This document shows, piece after piece, positions 3,311 through 26,020 of a stretch of DNA of 64,000 nt; the first letter of the stretch is position 1, and each line of letters opens with the position of its first letter. Both the position numbers and the translations under genes were made by a program. A model generated the notes under the pieces. The model did not search any database. It worked only from the letters and a program-made list of their open reading frames with translations, and was not told where the DNA came from. Origin of the DNA: an uncultured Clostridia bacterium (GTDB taxonomy: Bacteria > Bacillota > Clostridia > Lachnospirales > Lachnospiraceae); assembly GCA_947058385.1 (NCBI GenBank), contig CAMSGQ010000015.1:7692-71691 (forward strand), given 5' to 3'.

Positions 3311-3311
3311 T

Positions 3312-4100: not shown

Positions 4101-4177
4101 AAAATTCAACAAGCACAACAACTTTAGCAGAAGAAGTGCTATCCTCCTTTTCCTTTGCATTACAACTAATTGACGCC

Positions 4178-5269
4178 TTATCCAATCCTTTGAAGCATAT
4201 ATTTTTTTGTTGGTTTTTCTATCATAAGATTCATCATAACAGCAAAGCAAATGTTTAAAATAAAAGAAAAAAGAAAAATAAGAAAAAAATTTTTCTCTTT
4301 TATTATCCCATTTTTTATTCCTAAAGTCACAATTCGATTCGCTAATGTCTGTGTCAAATAAAAACTATATTGTAAAGAAGATGCCCACTGAACCAGTTTA
4401 CCCCCCCAAGTTGTACGAGATTTAAAATTAAATTGTGTCATAAATAAAATCAAAATTCCAATATATGGAACTACAATAAAATTATATTGTGTATAATTTC
4501 CTTTTAAAATCTCAAAATACTGATTTACTGCCACAATAAAAAATATCGTAGCAATACTTACTGTAAAACAATTACACCATCTCTCTTTTTCTTTTCTTTT
4601 CAAAAACCATTCAGCCAATAACATCCCTATTACAAATTCTGGTAATCGTATTAAAAAATTAGTATAGTAACTTGCCATACTGCCACCAAACAAAAACTGC
4701 ATCAATCCATGATAAACACTAAGAAAATAACAAATTGCAAAACCAACAATAAAACAATATTTTTTATGTACTACTATTTTCTTTAAAATTATACTAATTA
4801 ATGGAAACAAAAAATATAAAAAAACCATTACTGATATAAACCAAGTTCCCCCATTTCCACAAATATTAAACGTGGTTGGAAAAAAAGTTTGTAAACAAAA
4901 AAATTCACATCCAAGTATAGCAAATACCTTTGGCAATGTATCAGGAAAAGATAATCGAAAACTAAAAATAATCATCAAAAACACAAAATAGGCAGGATAA
5001 ATACAAAAGAATCTTTTCCTATAAAACTTCTTTAAATTATTTTTATCTGAAAAATCGGTTTCTCGATAATGATATTGTAATACAAAACCAGATAACATAA
5101 AAAATCCTACCATAAAGATTGCTCCAACTGAAATAACACGATCCACCATTTCAATTACTATATTTCCATTTAAATGAATACTAAAATGAATGGAAAGATG
5201 AAAAAATGCTATTATCAATGCAAAAATAATTCTCAGCAAATCTAATCCTATCAATTTTTTCATAAACAA
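4178..5269 (-). CDS. acyltransferase family 3 (membrane O-acyltransferase)
   Basis: 363 aa polytopic; N-term LDLLRIIFALIIAFFHLSIH characteristic of Acyl_transf_3. Confidence 0.65.
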   Translation of the reverse strand: MFMKKLIGLDLLRIIFALIIAFFHLSIHFSIHLNGNIVIEMVDRVISVGAIFMVGFFMLSGFVLQYHYRETDFSDKNNLKKFYRKRFFCIYPAYFVFLMIIFSFRLSFPDTLPKVFAILGCEFFCLQTFFPTTFNICGNGGTWFISVMVFLYFLFPLISIILKKIVVHKKYCFIVGFAICYFLSVYHGLMQFLFGGSMASYYTNFLIRLPEFVIGMLLAEWFLKRKEKERWCNCFTVSIATIFFIVAVNQYFEILKGNYTQYNFIVVPYIGILILFMTQFNFKSRTTWGGKLVQWASSLQYSFYLTQTLANRIVTLGIKNGIIKEKNFFLIFLFSFILNICFAVMMNLMIEKPTKKYMLQRIG

Positions 5270-7944: not shown

Positions 7945-7990
7945 ACAATCCACCTCAAACCAATTATTATTTTTTACTAAAACTTCAAAT

Positions 7991-9058
7991 TCATAAAATT
8001 CTTGAAACAACATTCCCCTCTTCCAATATTTGAATCGTCCTAACAATTGCTTCTTCTATCCCAAACTGAGCCCTCCATCCAAGTGCTTCTAATTTATCCG
8101 TTGAAAGAACTGCACAATTCATTTTATTTTGATATTCTTCCCCCTGCTTCTCTCTTTCCATTCTCACTAATACCCCTGCCTTTAACGCAATTTTTTCTGC
8201 AAACTCCCGAATCGATACCCGATTGCTCATATTCGAAACATTATAAACCTCTCCATCCACTCCTTTTGTTAATAAGCTACAAATTCCACTCACACTGTCA
8301 CTCACATAACAATACGACCGAATCTGCTTTCCCTCTGTATGTAACACAATATCTTGTTTTTCCACTGCTTTCTTTATAAATACCGCATGAATCCGACTAT
8401 CTTTTATCTGAAACGTAGAACCAAATGTATGTGATAGCCTTGCAATTACAATTGGAATATTCCACTGTTTAAAATAAGCCATACATAAATTTTCAGCTGC
8501 CCTTTTACTAACTGGATATGCATTCCTTACACAACGACTATCCATATATCCGCTTTCTTCTTCCTTCCAAGCAAACCCATTCTCTCCCGTTTCTTCTCCA
8601 ATCCCATACACTTCTCCAGTCGATATATAAATCATTTTTTCCTTAACAAACTCACGGGCATATCTTAAAAGATAAACTGCACTAAGCAAGTTTCCTTCTG
8701 CTGTTTCAACTGGACTTTCTTGAAACTTTTTTGGATCTGCATTACCTGCTAAATGAATGAGATAATCCACTTCTACTTGAAAAGAAATCTCCTCTTTTGC
8801 ATCATAAGGCAAAAAAGAAATATATTCTTTTTCTCCAAACCTTTGCTTTATTTTCTCTTTCTCTCTGCCACATAAGAATAACTGACAATGATACTGATAT
8901 GCTTCATTTAGATAAATCAACACATCCACGAAATGTGATCCAATACTTCCTGTTGCCCCTGTTATAAGAAAACTTTTTCCATATAATTGGCTGACTGATA
9001 AAATATTTTTTTTCACTGTCTCTAAATCTTCTCTATATAATTCACTCCAATTCTCCAT
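7991..9058 (-). CDS. NAD(P)-dependent SDR-family epimerase/dehydratase/reductase (candidate reductase half of a split Bcs1-type CDP-ribitol synthase)
   Basis: Rossmann ITGATGSIGSHFVDVL, catalytic Y..K region (YPVSKRAAE). Confidence 0.7.
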   Translation of the reverse strand: MENWSELYREDLETVKKNILSVSQLYGKSFLITGATGSIGSHFVDVLIYLNEAYQYHCQLFLCGREKEKIKQRFGEKEYISFLPYDAKEEISFQVEVDYLIHLAGNADPKKFQESPVETAEGNLLSAVYLLRYAREFVKEKMIYISTGEVYGIGEETGENGFAWKEEESGYMDSRCVRNAYPVSKRAAENLCMAYFKQWNIPIVIARLSHTFGSTFQIKDSRIHAVFIKKAVEKQDIVLHTEGKQIRSYCYVSDSVSGICSLLTKGVDGEVYNVSNMSNRVSIREFAEKIALKAGVLVRMEREKQGEEYQNKMNCAVLSTDKLEALGWRAQFGIEEAIVRTIQILEEGNVVSRIL

Positions 9059-9083
9059 TTTATAGTTTCTCCAATCTTTTCTT

Positions 9084-9794
9084 TTATTTTAACCAGCCAG
9101 CCTTTTTCTCTGTTAATAACGCTTTAAAAATTTCAATATCTTCCACAGTTGTTAATTTAATATTTTTTTCTGATCCCAATGACAAATATAATTTTTCTCC
9201 AAGCTCTACAAACATTGTACAAGTCGCAATCGAAGAAAAAATTCCCTGTTTTAATGCCTCTTTATGTGCCCAAACTAGTTTCCCCAATGTAGCCGCCTGT
9301 GGAGTCTGTGTTCTTTTCAAATTATCACGTGGTACTTGTACCTCTGATGTACTACCATCTTTCGTCTTTAACATCGCTTCTGCACAGGGAATAACAGAAA
9401 CAGCATTTCCAAACTGTGTACATACCCTAATACAATCCGAAATAATCTCTTCTGACACCATTGGCCGAATCGCATCATGAATTAAAACAATATCTTCCTC
9501 TTTATGAATTTTTTTTATCTCATTAATCCCATTTCGAATTGACTCTTGTCCATTTTCTCCACCAGATACAATGCTTTCTAATTTATCTATTCCAAACTGC
9601 TTACAATAAGCTCTTAGTATTTCATGCCATCCTTCCAAGCATACTACTACAATACTATCAATATTGGGATGTTTTTGAAATGCTTCTAAAGTATAAATAA
9701 TCACTGGTTTATCATAGACATTTAAAAACTGTTTTGGAATATCTTGGTGCATCCGTTGCCCAGAACCTCCTGCAATTACTAACGCAATATTCAT
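9084..9794 (-). CDS. IspD/TarI-family cytidylyltransferase (likely ribitol-5-phosphate cytidylyltransferase)
   Basis: 236 aa, N-term LVIAGGSGQRM...PKQF typical of IspD/TarI. Confidence 0.75.
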   Translation of the reverse strand: MNIALVIAGGSGQRMHQDIPKQFLNVYDKPVIIYTLEAFQKHPNIDSIVVVCLEGWHEILRAYCKQFGIDKLESIVSGGENGQESIRNGINEIKKIHKEEDIVLIHDAIRPMVSEEIISDCIRVCTQFGNAVSVIPCAEAMLKTKDGSTSEVQVPRDNLKRTQTPQAATLGKLVWAHKEALKQGIFSSIATCTMFVELGEKLYLSLGSEKNIKLTTVEDIEIFKALLTEKKAGWLK

Positions 9795-9806
9795 CTTTTT
9801 CTCTCC

Positions 9807-10805
9807 TTATCGCTCAATTAATTCAATTAAAAATGAATTTGCTAGTGCTAAAAAGCAAATTCTTTTTTTAAAATATACTGACTCTTTTAATGGAGATACT
9901 ACCTTTGCTCTGCTTCGTTCGAATATTTCTATCGCTTTTTCTATATTTCCAACAAAAAATGCAACATGATAAAGATGGATATGGTTCTTTTGATAAAATT
10001 CTAATGTTGTACAATTTGGTAAGTTTTCCAAAAGTTCTAATCTTGGAAAATTTTCGCAATTTCCATACCCTTTGCCAATCAAAAATTGCCCTTTTACTCC
10101 TTGTTCTAAATCTTGAAAGACACTTCCCTCACGAATATATCCTAAAATTTTATAGGAAAATATTTCCCGTTCCAGTTCTTTTGTTGCTACTCCAATATGA
10201 TGAAATTCAAACTCTCCAATTGCACAGCGCATATTTCTTACAAAAATCTTATATGCTTTTCTTTCCAATTCCTCTTGTATCTGATTGTAGTAATACTCTC
10301 TATCTACATACTGCTCCACAGCATGATAAGTTCTTCCATTTAAAATAAAAAAATTTTCTAATCTTCCTCTTGTCTTTTGATGAATAGATTCATGAAACGC
10401 TATCACAGATCGATTTTCTTCTACTGTTCGGCAAAATAATTCTTCTAATCCAATTCGATTAAATGCCGCTTTATAGATTAAGTCAACACTTTCTACTGCT
10501 CCCATTGAGCCCTGTTTGATAACCCATCTTCCCCATTCTGCTTTGTTTCCTTCTCTATCATAGATCCCAATCAATCCTTCTCTTTCTCCTGTTATCTTAT
10601 TTTCAATCACAAAATAATAATCCTCTTTTCGAGTAAAATACGCTTCAATCCACTTTTCCTGCATCAATTGATCGTTTGGTATCTCATGAATATATTGATT
10701 TCTTTCCTTATCCTCTAAACGAACTTCCAGTATAAAAGATGCATCCATAAGTGTAACTGGACGTATTTTATAAGCATATCCTTCTACTGTTATTGTGTGT
10801 TTCAT
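9807..10805 (-). CDS. GNAT-family N-acyltransferase fused to VOC (glyoxalase/methylmalonyl-CoA-epimerase-like) domain
   Basis: Start moved to MKHTITVEGY (10805) so it does not overlap the carrier-protein gene. GNAT-like N-half; C-half HHIGVATKELERE ... HVAFFVGNIEKAIEIF typical VOC. Confidence 0.55.
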   Translation of the reverse strand: MKHTITVEGYAYKIRPVTLMDASFILEVRLEDKERNQYIHEIPNDQLMQEKWIEAYFTRKEDYYFVIENKITGEREGLIGIYDREGNKAEWGRWVIKQGSMGAVESVDLIYKAAFNRIGLEELFCRTVEENRSVIAFHESIHQKTRGRLENFFILNGRTYHAVEQYVDREYYYNQIQEELERKAYKIFVRNMRCAIGEFEFHHIGVATKELEREIFSYKILGYIREGSVFQDLEQGVKGQFLIGKGYGNCENFPRLELLENLPNCTTLEFYQKNHIHLYHVAFFVGNIEKAIEIFERSRAKVVSPLKESVYFKKRICFLALANSFLIELIER

Positions 10806-10849
10806 AAATAAAATCCTTTCTCTTTTCGTAGGCAAAAATTCTTGGACAA

Positions 10850-11071
10850 TTAGGATACCTTTTTTTGTAATGCACAAATAATTTCTGTAATTGTAGTAAT
10901 TTGAGCAAGTTCCTCCTGCTGAAATAAAATCCCATATTCCTCTTCTAATGCTAAAATAATTTCTATATGATTCATAGACCCCCACATCTTTGGTGTATCC
11001 AAATTTTCAAACAATTCTTTTTTTTCTAATTTTGTTATTTCTGTTATAATTTCAATCACTTTTTCTTTCAT
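10850..11071 (-). CDS. acyl/peptidyl carrier protein (PP-binding)
   Basis: 73 aa; WGSMNHIEIILALEEEYGI resembles carrier-protein Ser motif (DltC/ACP-like). Confidence 0.6.
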   Translation of the reverse strand: MKEKVIEIITEITKLEKKELFENLDTPKMWGSMNHIEIILALEEEYGILFQQEELAQITTITEIICALQKKVS

Positions 11072-12653
11072 TTTTTATTCCCTCTATCTCTATTTTTATA
11101 ACGTCCTTTGGCAATATATAATTCATCTCTTGTTCCTGATTGATATATTCCTTAGCATATTGATTTAAAAATTTTTCAGCCGGCGTATTTCTTTCTCCTT
11201 TTTGAAATAAAATCTTTACTTTTTTTAAACCAAACAAATCCTGTGCAATCGAAATAGAACCCAAAACAATGGCATCTTCTATTCCTCTTCCTAACGCCCT
11301 ACAGCTTATAAAACATTCTTCTAAAATCAAGAAATCGGTTGCCTTTTTTATTACACAAACTCCAATTAACCCACTATCGGACAATCGATCCTGTAGATTT
11401 ACTGCTATTACTATCATCTCTTTTCTTTGCATCCGTTCTTTTATTTCCTGAATGGAATACCTTTTATAAGAAAAAATAAATTGATTGGTCTTATTTGCCA
11501 ATTCCGAAATTCGCACTACACTTTCCAAAGGATTACACTGATACTGTAAAGTAATCTGCAAAGATTTTAAATATGCTTCTTTTGATAAGGTTTGTTTTAT
11601 CTTTTGTCGTTTTTGATTTTCTTTGATATCCTCTGAGCGAAGCTGATCCTCTTTCTGCATGGATAATTTCATAAGACCTGGATAATTTGCCAATATCGTA
11701 TTTGTTATCTGCGGATTCTCACTTGCCTGAATCACATGAATATCAGGATACTTTGCTAAAACTGATAAAATTTCTCCAATATTATCATCGATAAATAATA
11801 TACTATCGACATGAATATTTAAAAAATCTGCAATTTTTTCAATCATGCTTGACTTTTCTTCCCAAGAAGCACAGATTAGACTAAAATCCTCTTTTTTAAT
11901 AAGAAAATCTTTCCTTTGATCCAACAATTTCTCTACGTCTTGCTTTTCATTTTTACTTGCAATACAAATAAAAAATCCCTGATTAGCAAAATTTTTTAGC
12001 TGTTTTTGAAAAGAAAGATACGCTTTCGAAACTTCTATCTTTTCTATTCCATCTTCTCCTAAAATCCCTCTATATAAAGTATGATCTAAATCTACAACAA
12101 TCGCCTTTAGCATAGGCTTTAACAGTGCAGGAAGATATCGTAATCCTAAGTCTTTTGCTATCATCATACAGGCCTTTGCACTCAATCTCGTTCCTGATAT
12201 CTTTTCCAAACGTTCATCGAAATAGGCATTTCCTAATATTTCCTCTATTGAGTGAAAATCATAAAAAACCACATGTTGATATTCCATTGTTTTTCCTAAT
12301 AAAAGACACAAAATGGGTCTTTTATAAATAGAAAGCAATGTCTTTAACCGTTCTTTTAAAAATTCCTCTATCGCATCTATTTGATATCGTTTCATATCTA
12401 ACCAAAGAATCAGCATATCCGTATTTGAATTAAGTTGAAAAAAAGACAAACTATCATCATAATCACTATATAAAAAATTTACTTGCATCTTTGCATAATC
12501 AAGATAAGCAGATATCGTATGTTCTACTAATTCAAAAGAATGATTTCGATAAACTTGTATTTGATATCTTTTCTGTTCTTTGGAAGCAGTATAGGTTACT
12601 AATTCCTTTCTGCTTGGTTCTTTTTCAAATAAAAATTTTTGTAATTCCAACAT
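11052..12653 (-). CDS. FkbH-like HAD-superfamily (IIIC) protein with C-terminal acyltransferase-like domain
   Basis: 533 aa; HAD motif I AIVVDLDHTLY; motif IV LFIDDNIGE; size and architecture typical of FkbH-like domain proteins. Confidence 0.6.
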   Translation of the reverse strand: MLELQKFLFEKEPSRKELVTYTASKEQKRYQIQVYRNHSFELVEHTISAYLDYAKMQVNFLYSDYDDSLSFFQLNSNTDMLILWLDMKRYQIDAIEEFLKERLKTLLSIYKRPILCLLLGKTMEYQHVVFYDFHSIEEILGNAYFDERLEKISGTRLSAKACMMIAKDLGLRYLPALLKPMLKAIVVDLDHTLYRGILGEDGIEKIEVSKAYLSFQKQLKNFANQGFFICIASKNEKQDVEKLLDQRKDFLIKKEDFSLICASWEEKSSMIEKIADFLNIHVDSILFIDDNIGEILSVLAKYPDIHVIQASENPQITNTILANYPGLMKLSMQKEDQLRSEDIKENQKRQKIKQTLSKEAYLKSLQITLQYQCNPLESVVRISELANKTNQFIFSYKRYSIQEIKERMQRKEMIVIAVNLQDRLSDSGLIGVCVIKKATDFLILEECFISCRALGRGIEDAIVLGSISIAQDLFGLKKVKILFQKGERNTPAEKFLNQYAKEYINQEQEMNYILPKDVIKIEIEGIKNERKSD

Positions 12654-12666
12654 AAATACGCCACCT

Positions 12667-13770
12667 TTATCTTCTATAATGATTGATTGTTTTTATGACA
12701 TATTCCATCTGAGATTCTGTCATTCCATAATAGATTGGAATACTAAGAATACTGTTGCATAAACGCTCCGTTAAAGGAAATTCCCCTTTTTTAAATTTCA
12801 ATGTCTGATATGCTTTTTGTTTATGAATTGGAATGGGATAATGAATATTGGTTTCGATATTTTGCTCACTTAAATAATTCCTTAATGCATCTCGTTCTTC
12901 ACAGTATAATACAAATAAATGCCAAACACATTGGAACTTTTTATCTTCCTGCAAAGGAAGCCGAATCAATGGATGAGAAATTTCTTCTAAATATCTTTTT
13001 GCGATCCTCTTTCTTTCTTCATTCCAACGATCTAATTGCTCTAATTTTACTAATAAAAAAGCTGCTTGCATTTCATCTAACCTAGAATTTGTCCCCTGGT
13101 AAGTATGGATATATTTTTTTTCTGAACCATAGTTTCTTAACATCCTTACTTTTTTTGCCAATTCCAAATCATTTGTTACAACCATTCCAGCATCTCCTAA
13201 TGCTCCCAAATTCTTTCCTGGATAAAAACTAAATCCTGCAGCATCTCCTAATATTCCAACTTTTTTTCCTTGATACATCGCTCCATGTGCTTGTGCAGCA
13301 TCTTCAATGACTTTTAAATGATAGTTTCTAGCAATTGCAAGAATCGGTTCCATATCAGCCGATCTTCCATATAAATGCACTGCAATAATCGCTTTTGTTC
13401 TATCTGTAATCTTTTCCTCGATTTGTGCTGGATCTATTGTATAACTTTCTTCTTCTGGTTCTACCAATACAGGAATTGCCCCTGTATGGGATACAGCAAG
13501 AGCTGTTGCAATAAATGTATTAGCTGGAAGAATTACCTCATCATTCGCACCAATTCCCATTGCAAGTAAAATAAGATATAAGGCATCCAAACCGGTTCCA
13601 CACCCAATTGCAGCCTCTGCATTACAAAAAGAAGCAAATGCTGTTTCAAATTTTTCTAATTCTTTTCCCATAATAAAACTATTGTTTTGGTACACCTCTA
13701 AAAATTTTTCTTTTATTTGCATTTCGATTTCCTGATGCATTTTCTCCAAGGAGACAAATGGTACTCTCAT
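12667..13770 (-). CDS. DegT/DnrJ/EryC1/StrS-family PLP-dependent sugar aminotransferase
   Basis: 367 aa; [22 protein letters not shown] (PLP-Lys region). Confidence 0.85.
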
Positions 13771-14174
13771 ATTGTCCCTCCCTTTACCATTCCAAGAAAT
13801 TGATCATAATTTCGTATGTAATCAGATTCATCATAATATTCCGATGCCAATACCATTAAAACAGCATCTTCTGAAAAATCATACATTTCACGCCACATAG
13901 AATGGGCAATATATAAACCCTCATAGGGTTTTTCTAATGACACAATTTTCTTTTCTATTCCATTATCAAGAAGAATTTTACAAGATCCATGAATACAAAC
14001 TAAGATCTGCTCTAAACATTTATGTGCATGAAACCCCCGATGAATTCCATCTTTTGTTTCATACATATAATATACCCGCTTAATCTGAAACGGAATATCT
14101 TTTAACTCTTCTAGTGCTACCAGTTGTCCTCTTTCATCACCATGTTGTTGAAACATATATTTTAAAATTTGCAT
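13767..14174 (-). CDS. FdtA/WxcM-like sugar 3,4-ketoisomerase (cupin)
   Basis: 135 aa; [13 protein letters not shown]...[22 protein letters not shown] typical of dTDP-4-keto-6-deoxyhexose 3,4-isomerases. Confidence 0.7.
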
Positions 14175-14192
14175 ATGCCTTATCCTTCCATT

Positions 14193-15137
14193 TCAATTGT
14201 TCTTTTTCCTTCTTTTTTTCCTATAGACACGCAATGCATGAATCGGATAGCGAATTGAAATCAACAGTTGTTTTATTCGATTTTTTTGATACTTTTTTTG
14301 ATAAAAAAGAATTCTCCCTTCTCCTTTATGCCAATATTTCCATTTTTGATAGGAAAACCACCGTTTCAAAGGATATTTTGTATACTTTATAATCTCATTT
14401 CGAAAAATCAAATCGGAATCTTTTTCATACTGTTGATTAAAATTGATGGGTGAACTCATTCCTCCCGACCGATATTGAATCACAATTCGATCCCAAAATT
14501 CAATGTTTTCCCCCTTTCTTGTTAAAGATAAATAAGTAGGATAATCATCAACTAACTGGTATTTTTTACTGCAAATACCATATTTTTTTATATTCTCCCT
14601 ACTTCTAGCTGTACAACAGCCAAATATAAAATTTCCCTTTGTCAATTCCTCAAATAATTGTCTTGCATCTTTTTGCAAAAGAATCTCTACTTGTTCCTTC
14701 GTTGGAAGTAATCCCTGATATTGTTTCATCTCTTTATCATAAACTGCTCGATAAGCTGTTATAATTCCAGAACCCCTTTTTAAAAACTCACAGACCCATT
14801 CTTCTAATACAAGTGCATCATAAAAAATATCATCTCCTGCCAAATGAAAAATATAATTTCCCTTTACATACTGTAATGCAGAATAATAAGATTTTACTGT
14901 TCCTAGATTCGTCTTATTTTGATAAACAACATACTCTTCAATATTTGTCCTCTTTTTCTTTTCTATATAATTTTCTATCTCTTGTAAGGAAAAAGAAGAG
15001 GAAGCATCATCAAAAATCAAATATTGAATTCTTGGATAGGTTTGCATTAAAACAGAATCGATCGTTTCTTTTAAATGCAGACTATAATAAGCAAGTGTAA
15101 TTACGGTTATTAAATCCTTCATTTTTACTCTTTCCAT
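14193..15137 (-). CDS. glycosyltransferase family 2
   Basis: ITVITLAYYS...YLIFDDASS (DXD); start may be MKDL at 15122. Confidence 0.6.
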   Translation of the reverse strand: MERVKMKDLITVITLAYYSLHLKETIDSVLMQTYPRIQYLIFDDASSSFSLQEIENYIEKKKRTNIEEYVVYQNKTNLGTVKSYYSALQYVKGNYIFHLAGDDIFYDALVLEEWVCEFLKRGSGIITAYRAVYDKEMKQYQGLLPTKEQVEILLQKDARQLFEELTKGNFIFGCCTARSRENIKKYGICSKKYQLVDDYPTYLSLTRKGENIEFWDRIVIQYRSGGMSSPINFNQQYEKDSDLIFRNEIIKYTKYPLKRWFSYQKWKYWHKGEGRILFYQKKYQKNRIKQLLISIRYPIHALRVYRKKRRKKNN

Positions 15138-16018
15138 TCTAGATTATACTTCTGATGAAATCCCATATCCTGTTTCCATGCATCCCAAATTGCATCTTTT
15201 ATCAACTGACGTATTTTTTTCTTTTGAAAAATATATCTGATAAAGTAATAACCACTTTGTAAAATGGCCTGCTTCTTTCCCATATGCTGAATATAGGCAT
15301 GAATTTTATTTCTGATATTATAATAAGTTTTCCATGTAAACCCTGTAGTTAAATTGGTATCATGTATTATTTTTATACTAGGTATACAGCAAATTTTTCC
15401 CTGCTTTCTTATTCGATAACTATGTTCACTGTCATCATATGCGATAAAATAATCTCGATTTGGCAAACCCGCCTGTATAAGTGCTTCTTTTGAAAGTGCT
15501 GTTCCAACATAAGAAAAAAGAGTAATAAAAAAAATATCCTTTTTATATTCTTCTTCTGATACTCTCTCTTCTAAAATTCCATACCATTTTTTAATCACTC
15601 GCCTTCGATGCCAAGTATCAATTTTCCCTTTTCTCCAAACACTGCCACAAATTGCTGCTACTTTCTTTTTCTTTAATCGCTCAATCCACTTTTCTAAAAT
15701 TTCGATTCCATCTAATGCAATATAAGCATCATCATCCGCTACCCAAATCCATTCTGCATCCAGATCTTTTGCAAACTGTAATCCTTTATAATATCCGCCA
15801 CTTCCTCCCAAATTTTCTTTTAATATAATACCTTTATGTTGTATTTCTTCTTGTCTTTCCATCCAATCTTCTATATAGTTTGCTGTTCCATCTGTTGAGC
15901 CATTATCTACAACAAGAATATAAGCAGGTTTTCTATTTTGGCTTTCATAGGAATTTAATGCCTTTTTTAATTTTTCTATCCGATTATAAGTAACTATCAC
16001 AACTCCGATTTTATTCAT
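15125..16018 (-). CDS. glycosyltransferase family 2
   Basis: GVVIVTYNR...ILVVDNGSTDGT. Confidence 0.8.
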   Translation of the reverse strand: MNKIGVVIVTYNRIEKLKKALNSYESQNRKPAYILVVDNGSTDGTANYIEDWMERQEEIQHKGIILKENLGGSGGYYKGLQFAKDLDAEWIWVADDDAYIALDGIEILEKWIERLKKKKVAAICGSVWRKGKIDTWHRRRVIKKWYGILEERVSEEEYKKDIFFITLFSYVGTALSKEALIQAGLPNRDYFIAYDDSEHSYRIRKQGKICCIPSIKIIHDTNLTTGFTWKTYYNIRNKIHAYIQHMGKKQAILQSGYYFIRYIFQKKKIRQLIKDAIWDAWKQDMGFHQKYNLEWKE

Positions 16019-16976
16019 AACTTTCTCCTACTAGAAAAAACATCATTCCTGTATAAAAATCACCTAATACACTTCTAAATGAAATATAATTTAAATGAAA
16101 TAAATTATAAAAAAAGAGAGAGAAGATTCTATTTCTTGAATAAAATTCTTTTCGTTTCTTTTGAAAAGCAATCGCTTTCTTTAAATATGGTATCTGCGTA
16201 CGATGTGTCAAGGCTGTTGCCTGTAAGGAGTGTTCTATTTCTGTTATCATATTTTCTCTTTTCTTTTTTCTGGCAGCAGATTTTCTAACAGCAGAAAGGG
16301 AAAATGTGATTCCAACTGTATTTTTTGTATGTAATCGATACCTAGTTAATACGATATTTAGAAAATATAATCCATTGTAGTAGGCTGCCTCTTGATTTAA
16401 TTGCCAATCATGAGGAAGACCTTCCCAATATTTTGAACTACTGATTTGATTCCATAAAACTTTCCTTATCGCCATAGCCATTCCCGGATATTTAGGATGT
16501 CTTAAAAAGGATTTCCAATTTATCTTTTTACTTTTTTGAGAAAAAAATCGATAAAACCAATCTTCTTTTCTTCTCTTTCCATTTTCATCAATAAGCCGAT
16601 ATGCTGTAGACAATGCTAATATATTTGGATAGCGGTCAAAAAAGTTTTTGCAGACTTCTATCTTATTTTTTTCCCAGACATCATCTTGATCTGAGAGAAA
16701 GATCAGATCTCCCTTTGCAAGTCTTAAACCATTCCGAAAATTTTTTGCATATCCTAGTCGCTTTGAATTACAATAAAAATAAATTGCAATCTTTGTTTTT
16801 TTTTGAAAAGAGCGAATAATTTCTGATGTAGAATCCGAAGAATGATCATCACTAATAATAATTTCATCTGGCTGATAAGTCTGATTACAGATAGATTCTA
16901 ATTGTTCTTGTAAATATCGTTCTCCATTATAAGTTGCCATCACAACAGAAATCATGTTTTCTCTCCTTATCTCCAA
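16011..16976 (-). CDS. glycosyltransferase family 2
   Basis: ISVVMATYNGERYL...IIISDDHSSDST. Confidence 0.8.
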   Translation of the reverse strand: MEIRRENMISVVMATYNGERYLQEQLESICNQTYQPDEIIISDDHSSDSTSEIIRSFQKKTKIAIYFYCNSKRLGYAKNFRNGLRLAKGDLIFLSDQDDVWEKNKIEVCKNFFDRYPNILALSTAYRLIDENGKRRKEDWFYRFFSQKSKKINWKSFLRHPKYPGMAMAIRKVLWNQISSSKYWEGLPHDWQLNQEAAYYNGLYFLNIVLTRYRLHTKNTVGITFSLSAVRKSAARKKKRENMITEIEHSLQATALTHRTQIPYLKKAIAFQKKRKEFYSRNRIFSLFFYNLFHLNYISFRSVLGDFYTGMMFFLVGESYE

Positions 16977-17713
16977 TATTTTTTGACTCCATTATATAAA
17001 TGAAGTCCTGTATAAAATAATGCCTGTGATATACTCATTCCCATATAGCGATGCATCCCATAAGTCATCTTTGCTGACTTAAATCGATTTCTTGATTTTC
17101 CCTCTTTGCTTAAACGGTAAGAAACTAATGGTTCATTAATGCCATATGCTTTTTTGTATTTTTTCAAACACTTTAACCAAACCATATAATCCTCATGATA
17201 CTCATCATGTTCCATAGGAAACTCTAATGCAGCCTCTCTTTTTATCAATACAGAAGAACAAACAATGCGATTTCCTTGTAAAAGTTCTTGGTAGGTCAGA
17301 TCGGTTTGTACTGAAATAATTTTATGTAAATCTTCCCCTTGATGGCTATATAATTTTCTTGCAGTATAACAAAGTGCCATCTTTTTTTGTTGCATCAAAG
17401 CCAACTGTTTTTCTAATTTTTCTTGTTCCCACCAATCATCCGCATCCAAAAAAGCAATATACCTTCCTTTTGCTTTCCAAACTCCAATATTTCTTGTTCT
17501 AGCAACTCCTAAATTACTTGCATTTTTTAAATAAATTACTCGGTTGTCCATACAATACTTTTTAACAATATTCTCTGTTTGGTCTTTCGAAGCGTCATCA
17601 ATAATAATCAGTTCTAACTTTACTTTTTGTATTAATACAGATTGTATTGCCTGTTCGATAAATTTTTCTGCATTATAAGCTGGCATAACAACAGAAATTA
17701 GATTCTCTTCCAT
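16967..17713 (-). CDS. glycosyltransferase family 2
   Basis: ISVVMPAYNAEKFI...IIIDDASKDQT. Confidence 0.8.
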   Translation of the reverse strand: MEENLISVVMPAYNAEKFIEQAIQSVLIQKVKLELIIIDDASKDQTENIVKKYCMDNRVIYLKNASNLGVARTRNIGVWKAKGRYIAFLDADDWWEQEKLEKQLALMQQKKMALCYTARKLYSHQGEDLHKIISVQTDLTYQELLQGNRIVCSSVLIKREAALEFPMEHDEYHEDYMVWLKCLKKYKKAYGINEPLVSYRLSKEGKSRNRFKSAKMTYGMHRYMGMSISQALFYTGLHLYNGVKKYWR

Positions 17714-17733
17714 TTTTCTCCTTACTCTTTTTC

Positions 17734-18078
17734 TTATTTTAAATTCATAAAAAATACTCCTACAATAATAAAAGCACCTCCAATCAAAGAAAAAATAGTA
17801 ACTCTTTCATGAAAATATAAGATTGCAATTAGGATTATCATAATATTTGTAATTCCACCTAAGATAGGATAAATATAGCTTAAATCAAATTTAGAAATAA
17901 CAACTGTATACAATAAAAAACTAATGATATAACAGCAATATCCAATAATAGATGGCAAAGTAAACTTTAAATGAGCAATTTGAATCCATATTTTTAGCCC
18001 TTCCTGACTCCCTATTTTCATAAAAGTGATACCCAATATCGAAAATATTAAATACATCAGACAAAATAGATACTTCAT
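17734..18078 (-). CDS. small 4-TM membrane protein, SMR/EamA/ArnE-ArnF-like (candidate lipid-linked sugar flippase subunit)
   Basis: 114 aa, four hydrophobic helices; lies in a glycosylation module. Confidence 0.45.
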   Translation of the reverse strand: MKYLFCLMYLIFSILGITFMKIGSQEGLKIWIQIAHLKFTLPSIIGYCCYIISFLLYTVVISKFDLSYIYPILGGITNIMIILIAILYFHERVTIFSLIGGAFIIVGVFFMNLK

Positions 18079-18429
18079 TTACATTTTCTCCAATTCTCTT
18101 ACTCTTTTTTCCAATATTGCATGGTTTTGTGTTAAATTTCGAATTCGTTCTGTTTGTTTTGAAACAATTGCTGTAAGTGACATAGAGATTAATAATGTAA
18201 AAAAGATTCCCACTAAAAATAACCCATACATTGGCGTTTCAATTCCGACCAATTTAACAAATATTTCTAAAAAGGAAGGAAACAATACCAACATTCCCAT
18301 AATAAAACCAGAAAACAGCCACAGCAAAATATACTTTAATGCTAACATTTTTTTCTTTATAAAATAAAGAATGCACCAAAAATATAAAATTACTACCCCC
18401 CCAAGCAATACTCTTAAGTAATTTGACAT
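18079..18429 (-). CDS. DUF2304-like small membrane protein with C-terminal coiled coil
   Basis: 116 aa; 3 TM then KQTERIRNLTQNHAILEKRVRELEK; commonly adjacent to GtrB-like GT2. Confidence 0.45.
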   Translation of the reverse strand: MSNYLRVLLGGVVILYFWCILYFIKKKMLALKYILLWLFSGFIMGMLVLFPSFLEIFVKLVGIETPMYGLFLVGIFFTLLISMSLTAIVSKQTERIRNLTQNHAILEKRVRELEKM

Positions 18430-18431
18430 TA

Positions 18432-19130
18432 TTATTTCCTCCTATATGTAAAACAGCAAATTATGATAGCAATAGAAACTTTTATCATATAATAAATGGA
18501 TTTTCTTAAATTAATAGAACTTACTCCATTTTGTCTTTCATGCATCACTACTGGTATTTCTTGTATCCTTGCTCCATTTAGACTAGCTGATACAATTGCT
18601 TCTGGCTCTGGATAATCTGATGGATAATCTGATACATAAAACTGAATGTACTTGTGGTTTACTGCACGAAATCCGCTTGTTACATCCTTTATTTTTGCTC
18701 TACAACATAGTTGAATCAATTTACTTAAAAAAGCAATACCTGCTCTTCTTGTTGTGGAGGATTGAAAGCCCTTTTTTTCAAGAAATCTTGATCCAATTAC
18801 AATATCTGCTTTTCCCTCTAAAATTGGCTGTATCGTTTTTCCTATATATGCTGGATCATGCTGCCCATCTCCATCATGTTGAATTGCAATATCATATCCA
18901 TATTTTAAGGCATATTTATAACCTGTCTGTATTACTCCTCCAATTCCCAAATTAATAGGAAGAGAAATAAAATTATAATTATTTTTTTCGCATACCTCAA
19001 TTGTATTATCCTTTGAGCAATCATTTATAATTAAATAATCTATCTCAGGTATTGATTGTTTTAAATTTTTTACTACACTTTCTATATTCTTACTTTCATT
19101 ATAAGCAGGTATAATTGCTAAAACTTTCAT
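18432..19130 (-). CDS. GT2 polyprenyl-phosphate glycosyltransferase (GtrB/DPM1-like)
   Basis: Start moved to MKVLAIIPAYNESKNI (19130), immediately after upstream stop; LIINDCSKDNT DXD. Confidence 0.7.
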   Translation of the reverse strand: MKVLAIIPAYNESKNIESVVKNLKQSIPEIDYLIINDCSKDNTIEVCEKNNYNFISLPINLGIGGVIQTGYKYALKYGYDIAIQHDGDGQHDPAYIGKTIQPILEGKADIVIGSRFLEKKGFQSSTTRRAGIAFLSKLIQLCCRAKIKDVTSGFRAVNHKYIQFYVSDYPSDYPEPEAIVSASLNGARIQEIPVVMHERQNGVSSINLRKSIYYMIKVSIAIIICCFTYRRK

Positions 19131-21010
19131 TGTACATTCATTCTTTCTTCTAGTTTTTCTTTTTGTTGATGAAAATCGAAAAGTGCATAACATATTAAAA
19201 ATGGTGTAATAGCCATAATTGGTAAAGAATAACGAATACTTCCATTTACAGGGCTTGCCATATTTATTAATAAACATAACAACGCTGGTATAAAAAACAC
19301 CAATTTCCTATAATTTTTATTTGTAAAAATAAAGAATACCGCTAAAATTAATAACCAAGTATAACATGCTGGCCGATAAAGCAAATTTATAATTGGAAGT
19401 TTATATTGAATAGAATCAAAATTTTCAATAAGTTTTCTTCCATCCACTCGGTTATCAAGAAAATAAAAATCAAAATCTCCACGGTTTACATAAGAATAAT
19501 TGGTGGCCATTACATAATTACCAATGCTTGTATAGGGAAGACTATTAAGATAAAAATAGCGATATGTACCATGTAGAAAACTTTCTATATAACAAATAGG
19601 ATGTCGCCAAAGTTGCTTCCACCATACAATAAGATATGCTTTTATTTCCTCTGTTGTATTAAAACGCCGGCTTTTTACTGGATCAGAAATATCTGGATTA
19701 TATAGATTTGCTAAGTTCTCGTAATCTAATACTTTCGAAATAATCTCTTTTTCTTTTTCTGTTACATCATTTGGATATTCCTTTACATATCTTGCAGTTT
19801 GTTGAAATGGAACAGATAATGCTTCTCTTATATTTCCTTCTTGAATTCCAAAAACCGAAAGAAAAATAAAATGAAAGACAGCATAAATACCCAATACTCC
19901 AATTAAACTTTCTAACAAATATTTTCTATTTCTTTTAATAAAAAAAACCATACTCAATAAAGTTGGAACTACAATATAGATTCCGTTATTTCTTAATAAA
20001 CAAACCAATAAAGAAGTCGCTACCACTCCTAAGATATGAAGAAAAGAGAACTTTACCTTTGTTATTTCTATATCCATTAAATAAAGAATCCATAAAAGTA
20101 CCGCTAAATAATAAAGGACATCTTTAATTAATGTAATACTATAAATCTGCCAAATACTAAAAAAAGAAAAATATAATAAGATTCCCATTCTCCATTTCCA
20201 TACAATATTCCATTTTTTTAATAAGCAGATACTGTATGCAATAACAGCTGCTCCCACTAGGCTTTGAAACAAAGAATAGAAAAATATTCCTGCATTATCA
20301 CTCCCCCCTATCCATGTTCCAATTTTAAAAATAATCCCCATTATCACGGTAGAAAATACAGGGTGTATATTGCTCCACTCTATACTTCCAATATAAAAGT
20401 CTAACTGTAAAAATCCATCATAAGTTACAACACCAGGATAGAAATAAAATAAATAAGGAATTCGAAATAAAAAATAACATAAAAATGAGAAAATAAAACA
20501 ATGCTTATCTTTTGTGTTATTTTTTAAACAGTTTGTTTTAATTCTATATTTATTATAAAAAATCGATATAGACAACAAAACCATAGAAAAGAAACAAAAA
20601 TATCCTGCCGCAAACAAAAGGGAAAATATAAAATGTTTTAAATTTGAACTTATAAAAGAGATAGTTCCAGCATCTTTTAAACATTTTCCAATCATCATAA
20701 AAATAGAAAAAATACCAGAAAAAATACAATTTATTTTAGATATCTGCCACATATTCTTTTTTAGAAAAAAGAAATAGCATCCTGCTGTTCCAATCGACAA
20801 GAAAGAAGTCTGTAAATCAGAATTTTGTAACAAATAACAAATCTGTGCTACAGCGGCTACAAGCCAAGAATTACTTTCCCCTATTAGATGCTGATAAGTT
20901 TCTTGCATAAGGTTTTTATAAGGAGTGGTAAACGCTAATCCTGTCAAAATTCCCATAAAAACACATAAAATGACAAGACTGCTTTCTCCCATTCTCCTTT
21001 TTTCTTTCAT
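19127..21010 (-). CDS. polytopic membrane protein, probable GT-C-fold glycosyltransferase (YfhO/Gtr-type-specific-like)
   Basis: More than 12 TM helices with loops; start moved to MKEKRRMGESS (21010) with RBS GGAGAG; follows GtrB-like and small membrane-protein genes. Confidence 0.45.
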   Translation of the reverse strand: MKEKRRMGESSLVILCVFMGILTGLAFTTPYKNLMQETYQHLIGESNSWLVAAVAQICYLLQNSDLQTSFLSIGTAGCYFFFLKKNMWQISKINCIFSGIFSIFMMIGKCLKDAGTISFISSNLKHFIFSLLFAAGYFCFFSMVLLSISIFYNKYRIKTNCLKNNTKDKHCFIFSFLCYFLFRIPYLFYFYPGVVTYDGFLQLDFYIGSIEWSNIHPVFSTVIMGIIFKIGTWIGGSDNAGIFFYSLFQSLVGAAVIAYSICLLKKWNIVWKWRMGILLYFSFFSIWQIYSITLIKDVLYYLAVLLWILYLMDIEITKVKFSFLHILGVVATSLLVCLLRNNGIYIVVPTLLSMVFFIKRNRKYLLESLIGVLGIYAVFHFIFLSVFGIQEGNIREALSVPFQQTARYVKEYPNDVTEKEKEIISKVLDYENLANLYNPDISDPVKSRRFNTTEEIKAYLIVWWKQLWRHPICYIESFLHGTYRYFYLNSLPYTSIGNYVMATNYSYVNRGDFDFYFLDNRVDGRKLIENFDSIQYKLPIINLLYRPACYTWLLILAVFFIFTNKNYRKLVFFIPALLCLLINMASPVNGSIRYSLPIMAITPFLICYALFDFHQQKEKLEERMNVQ

Positions 21011-21181
21011 ATTATTTTCTCTCCTTTCAGAAATTCCTCTTTTGGTACTTTTTATTTTTATACCTCTCAGTACAACCGAAATTTCTTTCTTCTTTGTTTC
21101 TGTCAATTATATGAAACGGGCGGTACTGTACCCTCAAATATCATGTAATACATCATATTCTTATCCATAGTCTCCCTGGAT

Positions 21182-21211
21182 TTTATATTGAACAGTAAAA
21201 ATCACTGTCAA
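21182..21211 (-). promoter_or_regulatory. sigma70-like promoter (TTGACA-N18-TATAAA) for the GT-C/GtrB glycosylation operon, located 30 nt beyond the tnpB-like stop
   Basis: Minus-strand reading TTGACAgtgatttttactgttcaaTATAAAat. Confidence 0.4.
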
Positions 21212-21240
21212 TTTTTATTATAAATAACTCATCTAAATTT

Positions 21241-22452
21241 TTATTCTTTCCTATTTTCTTCTTTATAATAGGATAAAAATCTTTTTCCTACATTTCTAGC
21301 GGTATTTAATCCACTATTTCCTTGATGTCCATTCGGGCATAAAAAAAGCTGTCCTCCATAATAATTTTGACTTGGTATATGTCCTGTATTATAACGTTTA
21401 ATTTTTGCACCACATTCATTACAGCAATCTGAAATATGATAAGTTGGAACACGGCTTACAAGAATCCCCTCTGAAAAAGCCTTATATTTTAAATACCGAA
21501 TGACACGTCTGCCAATCCATTCAAAATTATCCGTTTTTAAATACCCCTTTTTCGAAAAATCAATTGTTTTTTGATAATTAGGAATCACAATTATTGTTAC
21601 TCCATTTGCCTTGCAAAACTCTATTATTCTACGACTTGTTCTGTGTGCATAGAATTGATTTAGATTTTCAATTTTTTTCAAGCAATTCTCTTTTTCTTTT
21701 CCTATTTCTCTTTCCCATTTCCTTTTCCATTTTTTCTTTTTTGCTTTTAATTCCAATCCACCTTGAAAAAACATCGTCTTTTCTAAATCACCATTTTTCC
21801 TTAGAATCGCTCCAACTGCAATACTATTATTTCCTGGAAATGATAAAGCAAGTACTTTTTCTACCTCTTTTATTTGCTCTTTTACAGGATGAATTCCTAC
21901 TATTTGTTTTCGAATTGGTATCTGTAAATATGCCTGTTTTTGACTTGCATCAATAATTGGTGATAATACTTCTACATTCTCTGGTAATTGACGCCCAGTA
22001 AAACGATAACGACTCCATTTCCATTTTTCTTTTGTATAAACTTTTAATAAAATAGAATCTTCTTTTCGCTCTTTATACATTCCTTTATAGTAAACTGGAG
22101 CAGCAAAAAAATTTTCTGCTTTAAATAAAATATTGCTTCTTGCCATACCAATTGCACAATTAATGGCAGCTCTTCTAAAATACAATGGGATTACTGGAAA
22201 ATCAATAAAAGGAAAACTGGCTTTTTCTTTCGCTTTTTGCATCTCCTTCGTTCCTATTGTGGCTACTTCTAATTTACGCATTAAATTAAAATTACTTATT
22301 GTAAGCCACTCTGGATATGTAGTTAATAAATCATAATAATGTTTTACTACTTTGTTATATAAAATTCTTGTTTCAAAAAGCCAATCCAAATGCTTATCAT
22401 AAAAACGAAAACGATAGGTTATTGTGATTGTTCCATTCTTTTCTTCTACCAT
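21241..22452 (-). CDS. TnpB (IS200/IS605 OrfB)-like protein with all three RuvC catalytic residues substituted: candidate nuclease-dead, TldR-like RNA-guided regulator
   Basis: 403 aa; N-term YRFRFY...RILYNKVV (OrfB N-term); RuvC-I position VLALSFPGNNSIAVG lacks Asp; RuvC-II TIIVIPNYQ lacks Glu; zinc-finger CCNECG...CPNGH followed by NSGLNTARNV instead of D.D.NAA.NI. Confidence 0.75.
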   Translation of the reverse strand: MVEEKNGTITITYRFRFYDKHLDWLFETRILYNKVVKHYYDLLTTYPEWLTISNFNLMRKLEVATIGTKEMQKAKEKASFPFIDFPVIPLYFRRAAINCAIGMARSNILFKAENFFAAPVYYKGMYKERKEDSILLKVYTKEKWKWSRYRFTGRQLPENVEVLSPIIDASQKQAYLQIPIRKQIVGIHPVKEQIKEVEKVLALSFPGNNSIAVGAILRKNGDLEKTMFFQGGLELKAKKKKWKRKWEREIGKEKENCLKKIENLNQFYAHRTSRRIIEFCKANGVTIIVIPNYQKTIDFSKKGYLKTDNFEWIGRRVIRYLKYKAFSEGILVSRVPTYHISDCCNECGAKIKRYNTGHIPSQNYYGGQLFLCPNGHQGNSGLNTARNVGKRFLSYYKEENRKE

Positions 22453-22482
22453 ATGAAATTCCTTTTTTAGTTTCCTATTGTT

Positions 22483-22515
22483 ACTCTATGTTTTCATAAA
22501 GTATGCTACTCTATG
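22483..22515. repeat. 29-nt palindromic hairpin element (13-bp stem, 3-nt loop), copy 1, ~30 nt upstream of the tnpB-like start
   Basis: gttttcataaagtaTGCtactctatgaaaac. Confidence 0.7.
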
Positions 22516-22521
22516 AAAACA

Positions 22522-22558
22522 AAAATTCTCCATTAAAAATAGAGAATTTTTGTTTTTT
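22522..22558. terminator. bidirectional terminator-like hairpin (9-bp stem) with flanking A/T tracts
   Basis: aaaattctc-cattaaaaata-gagaatttt followed by tgtttttt. Confidence 0.4.
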
Positions 22559-22568
22559 GACCAAAAAA

Positions 22569-22656
22569 TTGACGATCCATTTCTTATTTTTTCTTTTCTT
22601 TCAATAGAGATTTTGTTATCAAATCAATCCTTGTTTTTGACGATTTTTTTGACGAT
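22569..22656 (+). repeat. three copies of TTGACGAT (two as tandem 13-mer tttttgacgattt) in the tnpB-like/pyrD intergenic region
   Basis: 22569-76, 22637-44, 22649-56. Confidence 0.6.
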
Positions 22657-22910
22657 TTATTTTTATTTAAAAAAACGGGAAAAGGGAAACACTTTTATTT
22701 GAATATTTTTTGAATATAGATTCTTCTAAATTAAGAAACAATAGATAGCACTCTCTGCAAATTATTCGACAATAAATGTCATTGCCAATAAATAATTTTT
22801 GAAAAAAATATAAAGCTTTTTTACTATTTGGAGATTGGAACAACAAAATATCTACTATTTTCCAATCTCCATCAAAAATCGTCATTTCTTTTTACAAAAA
22901 GAATTCTCTC

Positions 22911-22939
22911 TTGACAAATCCCTTAAGAAAGGTTATCAT
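22911..22939 (+). promoter_or_regulatory. near-consensus sigma70 promoter on plus strand (TTGACA-N17-TATCAT) reading into the copy-2 hairpin and antisense to the pyrD 3' end
   Basis: ttgacaaatcccttaagaaaggttatcat; also part of the inverted repeat TTGACA...TGTCAA. Confidence 0.45.
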
Positions 22940-22969
22940 GTCAAACAGAGATATAACCCAATCAAACTT

Positions 22970-23000
22970 ATTTTCATAGAGTAGCATACTCTACGAAAAC
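22970..23000. repeat. 29-nt palindromic hairpin element, copy 2 (2 mismatches to copy 1), immediately after the pyrD stop
   Basis: ttttcatagagtaGCAtactctacgaaaac. Confidence 0.7.
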
Positions 23001-23001
23001 T

Positions 23002-24686: not shown

Positions 24687-24728
24687 ATCAACATTTTCCT
24701 TTCCATTTTATTTCTGTATCTCTATCTT

Positions 24729-25652: not shown

Positions 25653-25768
25653 TCTTTTTCTCCTTTTGCCTTTTATTCTATTTTTAACATTTTAGCATAA
25701 AGAAAGTATCCATTCAAGAAATCCCAAAAAATTATTTTAAAAAATAGATTTCCTTAAATAAATTAATT

Positions 25769-26020
25769 TTACTTAAACAGCCTTTGATATCGTTTTTTTA
25801 CTTTATTATATTCCTCTTCCGTTACAGGTTCTTCATTTATAAAATAGGTAGTTTCCTCTATATGCTCTAATCCAAAAGAAAGACTCTGTTCTATCTCTCC
25901 CTCTTTATAATCATAGATTATTCTTTCTGAATAATACCCCCAAATCCTCCAAAAGTTCCACTTACATACTTCCATTCCACTACAAAACAATAGTAATATC
26001 AATAAAATATAGTTTATCAT
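25769..26020 (-). CDS. small exported/membrane-anchored hypothetical protein
   Basis: 83 aa, N-terminal hydrophobic segment. Confidence 0.35.
   Translation of the reverse strand: MINYILLILLLFCSGMEVCKWNFWRIWGYYSERIIYDYKEGEIEQSLSFGLEHIEETTYFINEEPVTEEEYNKVKKRYQRLFK

Follow-up and report, generated by a model that had tools for sequence, protein, structure and literature searches.

The stretch of DNA analysed here, called the window in the following, comprises 64,000 nucleotides of contig CAMSGQ010000015.1 from an uncultured Clostridia bacterium of the Lachnospiraceae. Between pyrD and a glycan biosynthesis operon it carries an intact gene for a TnpB/Cas12f-like protein of 403 amino acids, in which all three catalytic residues of the RuvC nuclease site are replaced. 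The gene is directly followed by a conserved structured RNA and preceded by an invertible promoter segment (Table 1). The dead-TnpB gene and its RNA, referred to as the module, are probably a hitherto undescribed RNA-dependent regulator of surface variation. Homologous loci are given with their L numbers.

All motifs that the first-pass annotation had quoted for a TnpB-like protein with three replaced RuvC residues are present in the open reading frame (ORF), and its description was borne out by the ORF itself, by the alignments and by comparison with the clade. The sole match of the protein at curated threshold in Pfam is the C-terminal Cas12f1-like TNB zinc-finger domain PF07282 (E 8e-8), and the NCBIfam models guided_TnpB (37.6 bits, cut-off 100) and Cas12f2 (66 bits, cut-off 450) match weakly and below their cut-offs. 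An AlphaFold2 model, which was built on a 34-sequence alignment of the family, is confident (predicted local distance difference test 82.9, predicted template modelling score 0.69). Using Foldseek, the model was found to be similar to full-length AsCas12f (8j12; E 6e-15, template modelling (TM) score 0.59) and to TnpB (8h1j; TM 0.53-0.58), with OsCas12f, CnCas12f and dCas12f (9n9c) as further structural neighbours. Since these are matches to full-length Cas12f and TnpB structures, the modelled protein can be assumed to have the whole Cas12f/TnpB fold, consisting of the bilobed WED/REC part, RuvC and the zinc-finger TNB domain, and not the zinc finger alone.

In pairwise as well as in profile alignments to solved Cas12f/TnpB structures, the column of the RuvC glutamate is occupied by P in "IIVIPNY" and that of the third catalytic residue, an aspartate, by G in "GNSGLNTARN", and the three catalytic columns together read S, P and G. 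When the family was aligned with its distant matches, the distant relatives at 21-26% identity were found to keep VDL, FEHL and NADxNA at the triad positions; the whole clade to which the window protein belongs has S/A/C/Y/L/V, P/S/A/T and G/A/V/Y there, none of them acidic. Judged from these alignments, the RuvC nuclease site is lost across the whole clade and the loss is ancient. In the 34-member family alignment 54 columns are invariant, namely the four CCCH zinc ligands and 50 others, which argues for purifying selection on the dead-TnpB protein. The homologues are full-length and not fragmented, and no D/E/D triad was found at offset positions. The proposal of a nuclease-dead TnpB/Cas12f homologue outside a transposon, which is retained under selection, is thus supported.

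The family was defined by a profile search of 1.84 billion representative proteins and comprises 100 clusters at E<=1e-30, 331 at 1e-10 and 1,114 at 1e-3, where the about 100 clusters of the strictest threshold were formed at 50% identity and their count takes in some fragmentary entries. The exact window protein is listed in 71 blocks of a public assembly collection. The nearest relative with an intact D/E/D triad, P0193, is encoded directly behind a gene with the domains HTH_17 and Resolvase, i.e. an IS607-type serine recombinase TnpA. By its domains this layout is the IS607 tnpA-tnpB arrangement, which identifies the nearest intact-nuclease relatives as IS607-type TnpBs, and it is most likely that the dead-TnpB family is an exapted descendant of an IS607-type TnpB. 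At the window locus itself the hallmarks of a transposon, which are an adjacent tnpA, element ends and near-identical copies, were not found; the absence of tnpA noted before was confirmed by motif scans, which gave no tnpA-like recombinase motif in any ORF of the window. Likewise, no repeat array is present in 15000-29000, and the locus therefore does not qualify as a Type V-F CRISPR-Cas12f system.

The scaffold RNA that had been predicted beyond the stop codon has its counterpart in a conserved structured RNA at this position. It forms three stem-loops (SL1 to SL3) and a long-range helix P1, which encloses two hairpins and a CAAAGAAG linker, and its 3' end reads ...CUGAGAGGUAU. The core "GGUACAGCACCGCC ... 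CAAAGAAAA ... GUUGUGCUGAGAGGUAU" is located directly 3' of the stop codon in nearly all homologous loci. In an alignment of 56 sequences (loci), helix P1 is paired in 99.7% of the cells and has compensatory double changes in 6 of 6 pairs (49 cells versus 9.1 in shuffles), and when the partner strand was slid by 1-3 columns as a control, pairing was at most 57%. In an alignment of a subclade the prediction amounts to 34 pairs, and 15 of these show compensatory changes; the RNA there additionally has a hairpin with a GGAAAC loop, a 12-bp stem and two hairpins inside the long helix. Rfam contains no family for the RNA at gathering or at permissive thresholds and gave chance hairpin matches only. 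Instances of the RNA were searched for by sequence pattern plus pairing on both strands of all fetched loci and the window, about 0.8 Mb in total. This gave 72 instances, all adjoining a family gene and on its strand, and none elsewhere; a metagenome scan for the RNA that was not conditioned on the protein, which is a weak test, gave one match, and the gene is beside this one too. The RNA can be regarded as a new and well-supported RNA family.

The finding of this RNA changes the reading of a sequence that had been annotated as the promoter of the glycan operon, TTGACA-N18-TATAAA. The sequence is present 29 nucleotides after the stop codon (21211 downward), but it is stem-loop 1 of the RNA: the stem of SL1 shows covariation in L001-L004, L022 and L039, and these loci do not conserve the -35 hexamer. 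Instead of an operon promoter 3' of the gene, an invertible promoter on its upstream side serves as the switch. There, two palindromic sites of 31 nucleotides, whose central spacers TGC and GCA are reverse complements, are inverted relative to each other and enclose a segment with a promoter, which faces away from the gene in the window and would face into the gene after inversion. Public contigs that encode the identical protein end at one or the other recombination site. L083 (from SRR33871996) encodes the identical protein as well, has the segment flipped with the crossover inside the site, and has the promoter reading into the gene, whereas the window and L080-L082 and L084 share the other orientation, the junction being exactly at the site. 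Therefore, the window is in the OFF state and L083 in the ON state. Inverted repeats around a promoter segment and the occurrence of both orientations in natural populations characterize the segment as an inverton.

An upstream flank of at least 1 kb is available for 58 loci, and 33 of them have an inverted site pair, a handful of these pairs, as first found, being inverted repeats of another kind. Of 79 contigs, 21 end immediately upstream of the gene. Half-sites are shared within a genome and the central spacer is locus-specific and identical between partners, as expected of lox-like sites. A tyrosine recombinase gene (Pfam Phage_integrase) is located inside the segment in L059, L060, L061 and L077, on opposite strands in L059 and L061, and adjoins it in L064. 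Since no site-specific recombinase was detected in the window by motif scans of all ORFs, the cognate recombinase of its inverton is presumably encoded elsewhere. The upstream palindromes had also been considered as IS200/IS605 ends or as CRISPR repeats. This was rejected, as they form an inverted pair upstream of the gene with a locus-specific central spacer, and it is ruled out as well by the two orientations observed and by the tyrosine recombinases inside the segment in relatives.

Table 1. Features of the dead-TnpB locus, in coordinates of the window
Feature	Position	Strand	Remarks
Glycan biosynthesis operon downstream of the gene	about 2531..21010	-	Co-directional; DUF6020, glycosyltransferase family 2 (GT2), DUF2304, further GT2, others
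A-rich tail, position of a TnpB-type guide	21036..21059	-	Directly 3' of the scaffold
Conserved structured scaffold-like RNA	21060..21211	-	About 150-180 nucleotides, directly 3' of the dead-TnpB gene
Long-range helix P1 of the RNA	5' strand within 21119-21132; 3' strand within 21060-21077	-	
Stem-loops of the RNA	SL1 21188-21211; SL2 21164-21180; SL3 21138-21158	-	
TTAGATGAGTTAT motif	21224..21236	-	Coding strand; found again in many homologous loci, with varying position in the leader
Nuclease-dead TnpB/Cas12f-like protein gene	21241..22452	-	Intact ORF, 403 amino acids; RuvC D/E/D replaced by S/P/G; CCCH zinc finger kept
Proximal recombination site	22490..22520	.	Palindromic, lox-like; arms of 12-13 nucleotides, short central spacer; 37 nucleotides upstream of the start codon
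Terminator-like hairpin and U-rich stretch	22520..22551	-	Faces the gene in OFF orientation
Invertible segment, 449 nucleotides	22521..22969	.	OFF orientation in the window
Two pairs of GTCAA direct repeats	22552-22576 and 22633-22656	-	Within the invertible segment
Promoter TTGACA-17-TATCAT	22911..22939	+	11/12 consensus positions; inside the invertible segment
Distal recombination site	22970..23000	.	Inverted relative to the proximal site; abuts the pyrD stop codon

The module almost always heads a polysaccharide operon. Polysaccharide genes follow downstream in more than 60 loci, the distant clades behaving alike, and among 119 downstream ORFs Pfam assigned 22 to GT2, 20 to GT1/GT4, 15 to sugar-nucleotide dehydratases/epimerases, 13 to Bac_transf and 9 to Polysacc_synt_2. 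The link to surface-glycan operons, which had been suggested from the one locus, is thus consistent across loci. The window operon begins with a gene for a multi-pass membrane protein of 627 amino acids with DUF6020 (19127-21010, minus strand), which the first-pass annotation had called GT-C-like. The next genes are one of GT2, one with DUF2304 and one for a small SMR-like membrane protein, and this start is a GtrB-type lipid-linked glycosylation set and not a classical Wzx/Wzy capsule start.

The module was found in Lachnospiraceae, Eubacterium, Acetivibrio, Blautia and Anaerotruncus, including the cultured Eubacterium callanderi FD, Anaerotruncus colihominis DSM 17241 and Blautia schinkii DSM 10518. 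Diverged paralogues are present within single genomes, 7 and 6 in Lachnospiraceae metagenome-assembled genomes (MAGs), 8 in an Acetivibrio MAG and 4 in E. callanderi FD, and these intragenomic paralogues differ strongly, with 35-65% identity. Further arrangements occur. In L045:5912-7549 and L042:28-1674, the whole cassette of dead TnpB and RNA is enclosed by the inverted sites, along with a promoter that points outward, TTGTCA-17-TATACT; a flip of the L045 cassette would point this promoter at a divergent operon that starts at L045:5874. In Frisingicoccus the module is located after a gene for an LPXTG-type surface protein and near a Hin-like serine recombinase, and the small serine recombinases near the module in this clade are of the resolvase/invertase type with an N-terminal catalytic domain. 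L070:780-7342 has two tandem cassettes, each running from the C-terminal end of an LPXTG-type surface protein gene to the dead TnpB and then the RNA, with a serine recombinase gene (203 amino acids) between them. This layout points to a Frisingicoccus system for the variation of surface proteins in which the same module is employed.

Several smaller elements accompany the module and its switch. The 13-nucleotide motif TTAGAYGAGTTRT at window position 21224-21236 is always found on the coding strand, and its position in the operon leader varies: it is upstream of the gene in L012, L025, L031, L036 and L072, and after the RNA in L021, L023, L037, L038, L041 and L063. It is a candidate leader element and could be, for example, a pause or factor-recruitment site. 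A second conserved element, the short TAGGRAAY, has a small hairpin in front of it and changes its leader position by clade; it is located in the 5' untranslated region after the proximal site in L001, L002, L005, L006, L011, L013, L016, L017 and L024, and after the RNA in L048, L051, L066 and L071. Within the invertible segment, the paired GTCAA repeats (consensus CCGTCAAATTTCTGGTCA) form two sets about 80-90 nucleotides apart, which recur in the invertible segments of many clades, are conserved from Lachnospiraceae to Eubacterium and are also present in L008:5756-5875, L011:5779-5904 and the upstream regions of L048, L051, L069 and L071. They may be accessory or arm-type binding sites of the invertase. 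An ORF of 72 amino acids inside the segment (22667-22885, minus strand), which is gene-called in public assemblies and has no Pfam match, may be spurious or a remnant. The invertible segments of L006:2262-3176, L008:4530-5706 and L011:4932-5727 contain two nested, mutually inverted copies of about 325 nucleotides, each bounded by 32-nucleotide terminal inverted repeats 261 nucleotides apart, with a third copy at L006:5-256; these elements look like insertions of miniature inverted-repeat transposable elements inside the switch. Finally, a single tRNA gene at 38900-38982 (minus strand) is the sole Rfam match at gathering threshold in the window.

How might such a module act? Every characterized nuclease-dead TnpB/Cas12 relative performs RNA-guided DNA binding, for example TldR (10.1101/2023.11.30.569447) and dCas12f-sigmaE (PMC13472631), and because of this, DNA binding with a guide RNA is the leading model here, too. 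In this model the dead TnpB and its cognate structured RNA would be a TldR-like, RNA-dependent regulator that binds DNA without cutting it and heads a phase-variable glycan operon, a reading in which we have moderate confidence, about evenly balanced between right and wrong. The structured RNA would be derived from, or stand in for, an omega-RNA scaffold. Inversion of the tyrosine-recombinase type between the two lox-like sites would flip the segment of 449 nucleotides. In the ON state, transcription from the segment promoter would cross the proximal site and continue over the dead-TnpB gene, the RNA and the glycan genes, and in the OFF state the terminator-like hairpin would face the gene instead. 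The protein would bind the RNA, and the complex would bind DNA in the manner of a TldR. The protein would be present solely in the ON state of its own locus and would thereby link this state to the control of glycan-locus expression, and the target would most plausibly be the head of its own operon or competing paralogous loci. That the dead TnpB gates glycosylation, as proposed in the first-pass annotation, we infer from gene position.

The published TldR clades are linked to oppF, fliC and Clostridial flagellin/csrA. Like the module, TldRs are TnpB descendants outside transposons with a RuvC site that is dead clade-wide (at least two catalytic residues mutated), and they have a stable link to a class of host genes and an adjacent conserved structured RNA; here, a covarying RNA is beside the gene in 72 of 72 detected cases. 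Both concern variation of surface structures, which is flagellin there and glycans here. Unlike the TldRs, the module belongs to a separate and highly diverged lineage, as seen in its guided_TnpB score far below the cut-off, is IS607-type derived, retains its C-terminal zinc finger, which is not truncated, and is tied to polysaccharide operons and invertible promoters with many paralogues per genome. In addition, no guide or promoter target is recognizable, and the RNA is 5' of the gene in some clades. Taken together, it is most likely that the module represents a new TldR-like clade. In the literature searched, no TnpB-like gene was found with polysaccharide loci or invertons, the 506-protein list of the TldR paper not being part of this comparison.

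Several observations weigh against guide-directed DNA binding. The RNA is located upstream of the gene in L043, L044, L050 and L057 and thus not always in the position of an omega-RNA, and next to the nearest relative with an intact D/E/D triad its motif is not recognizable, nor did homology to a known omega-RNA or single guide RNA emerge. The segment 3' of the scaffold had been expected to hold a guide that matches a target. This expectation found no support: the 20 nucleotides after the scaffold are A-rich, differ between related loci and merge with the ribosome-binding site (RBS) of the next gene, which in the window is the first glycan gene (RBS and ATG at 21008-21028). Across the loci the scaffold ends 5-45 nucleotides before the next RBS/ATG, and in L002 the ATG follows after 5 nucleotides. 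The searches for guides and targets covered the window and about +/-6 kb around each locus; guides of 9-11 nucleotides would escape them. The 16-20 nucleotides after the scaffold matched same-genome loci solely at the homologous tail position, the whole RNA region matched the upstream and inverton regions of its own and sister loci not above between-genome controls, and guides of 10 nucleotides within each locus gave neither enrichment nor a consistent flanking motif. The sole additional match of the 21-nucleotide tail in the window, with 3 mismatches at 44267-44287 (plus strand), is antisense inside an ORF of 925 amino acids (41969-44746). Shuffles give an expectation of 0.03 such matches by chance, and the match is probably due to chance. 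Since no guide-target pair was found in the window, in cis or in sister loci within this range, the mechanism may be binding of DNA in trans or action in cis on the module's own leader.

In the latter case, the dead TnpB would bind the scaffold in the leader of the operon mRNA and act on its own transcript without guide-directed DNA targeting. This could occur by processive antitermination (as for UpxY, LoaP or the EAR element), by occlusion or exposure of the RBS of the next gene, or by mRNA protection. Such a mode of action is the main rival to DNA binding and is possible, but we consider it rather unlikely. It would account for the missing guide-target pair and for the short distance between scaffold end and next RBS/ATG, and it fits the observation that, wherever the module is linked to polysaccharide genes, the RNA shares one transcription unit with the biosynthetic genes and is placed ahead of them, behind the switch promoter, no matter on which side of the protein gene (3' or 5') it is located. 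Moreover, the module has the position that locus-specific NusG paralogues have in Bacteroides capsule operons (PMC11685472). However, no TnpB/Cas12 relative is known to work in this way, and no leader terminator that needs antitermination was identified. In Frisingicoccus the RNA closes a surface-protein operon, and what comes next is a terminator or the promoter of another gene, so that it is not a leader there, and in L045 and L042 a promoter is located between RNA and operon.

Alternatively, the protein-RNA complex may be an accessory of the DNA switch, which at or near the recombination sites would bias or lock inversion, similar to the orientation control by FimE. The co-occurrence of the module with inverted sites in very different clades, with tyrosine as well as Hin-like serine recombinases, is in line with this, as is the location of the whole gene-plus-RNA cassette inside the invertible segment in L045 and L042, where invertase genes often sit; furthermore, the window-type layout expresses the protein in one orientation only. 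But for no part of the RNA did the matches to the recombination sites or to the invertible segment exceed chance, and some loci, among them L057, L043 and L012, have module and operon without a detectable inverted pair, so that we regard this role as improbable. Still less likely, and largely refuted, is a decaying or selfish insertion sequence remnant without host function that is located beside glycan genes by chance. The descent from IS607-type TnpB, the several copies per genome and the annotation of the homologues as "transposase" in the sources would point there; however, the copies are diverged paralogues, as their identities show, and not products of recent transposition, all of them are full length with many invariant residues, neither tnpA nor element ends are present, the position and orientation at operon heads are constant across several bacterial families, and the RNA is conserved with covariation. 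That the protein is still a nuclease with relocated catalytic residues can be practically dismissed: certain TnpB and Fanzor proteins of the family are documented to have one residue relocated (10.1101/2023.11.30.569447), and in part of the clade an Asp occurs close to motif I ("FPD") or motif III ("LDYF"), but all three canonical positions are lost, these Asp residues are absent from the subclade of the window ("FPG", "GNSG"), and since the family has no invariant Asp and its sole invariant Glu, E62, belongs to the N-terminal helical region, ahead of all three RuvC motif positions, catalysis from elsewhere in the protein is very unlikely.

The TldR-like reading can be set beside further known systems. 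The dCas12f-sigmaE systems of Bacteroidota likewise use nuclease-dead miniature type V/TnpB-fold proteins over operons for envelope functions, there with a guide RNA, and their structure 9n9c is among the structural neighbours of the window protein. In contrast to them, the module has no adjacent sigma factor or helix-turn-helix partner, occurs in another phylum and has no evident CRISPR-like repeat or target with a G target-adjacent motif. In the capsule loci of Bacteroides (upxY/upxZ), many polysaccharide loci per genome are each located behind a promoter flipped by a recombinase and begin with a locus-specific regulator paralogue and a leader element. There, the regulators are a NusG paralogue and its inhibitor and the recombinase is a serine recombinase (Mpi), and the likeness is therefore positional and logical only. 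In hin-fljBA of Salmonella, an invertible promoter segment drives the gene of a surface antigen together with a regulator of the competing antigen, and the recombinase gene is located inside the flipped segment, as in L059-L061 and L077, whereas here the recombinase is a tyrosine recombinase, the regulator is of another kind and the product is a glycan and not flagellin. The IS607 tnpA-tnpB elements contain the closest relatives with an intact triad, such as P0193 with TnpA immediately upstream, and encode their omega-RNA at the tnpB 3' end as well; the window locus differs from them in the lack of tnpA and of element ends, in the dead nuclease and in its fixed position between pyrD and glycan operon.

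Nuclease-dead TnpB regulators have so far been connected with flagellin and peptide-transporter genes, and the related dCas12f with a sigma factor in Bacteroidota. The module ties the principle of the dead TnpB to phase variation by DNA inversion and to the diversity of capsules and exopolysaccharides in abundant gut Firmicutes. What is new is the lineage: it is distinct and IS607-derived, brings a new RNA family with it, is tied to phase-variable glycan operons and has many paralogues per genome. To our knowledge, the regulation of capsules in gut Firmicutes is largely unknown. With its multiple paralogues, the layout points to a network of regulators and not to one regulator alone. It is tentatively conceivable that genome-wide sets of paralogous dead-TnpB proteins and RNAs (up to at least 8), each made only when its locus is ON, jointly choose the phase-variable glycan, or in one clade the LPXTG protein, that is expressed, a possibility we would still call doubtful. 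If true, such sets would be the Firmicutes counterpart of the UpxY/UpxZ hierarchy of Bacteroides, built from a transposon nuclease. If the dead TnpB instead acts in cis on the leader RNA, this would be a mode of action new for any TnpB/Cas12 relative. If a guide rule is found, the compact protein of about 400 amino acids could also be developed, together with its scaffold, into a new programmable tool for DNA binding. As cultured carriers exist, the role of the module in the surface variation of these bacteria is directly testable.

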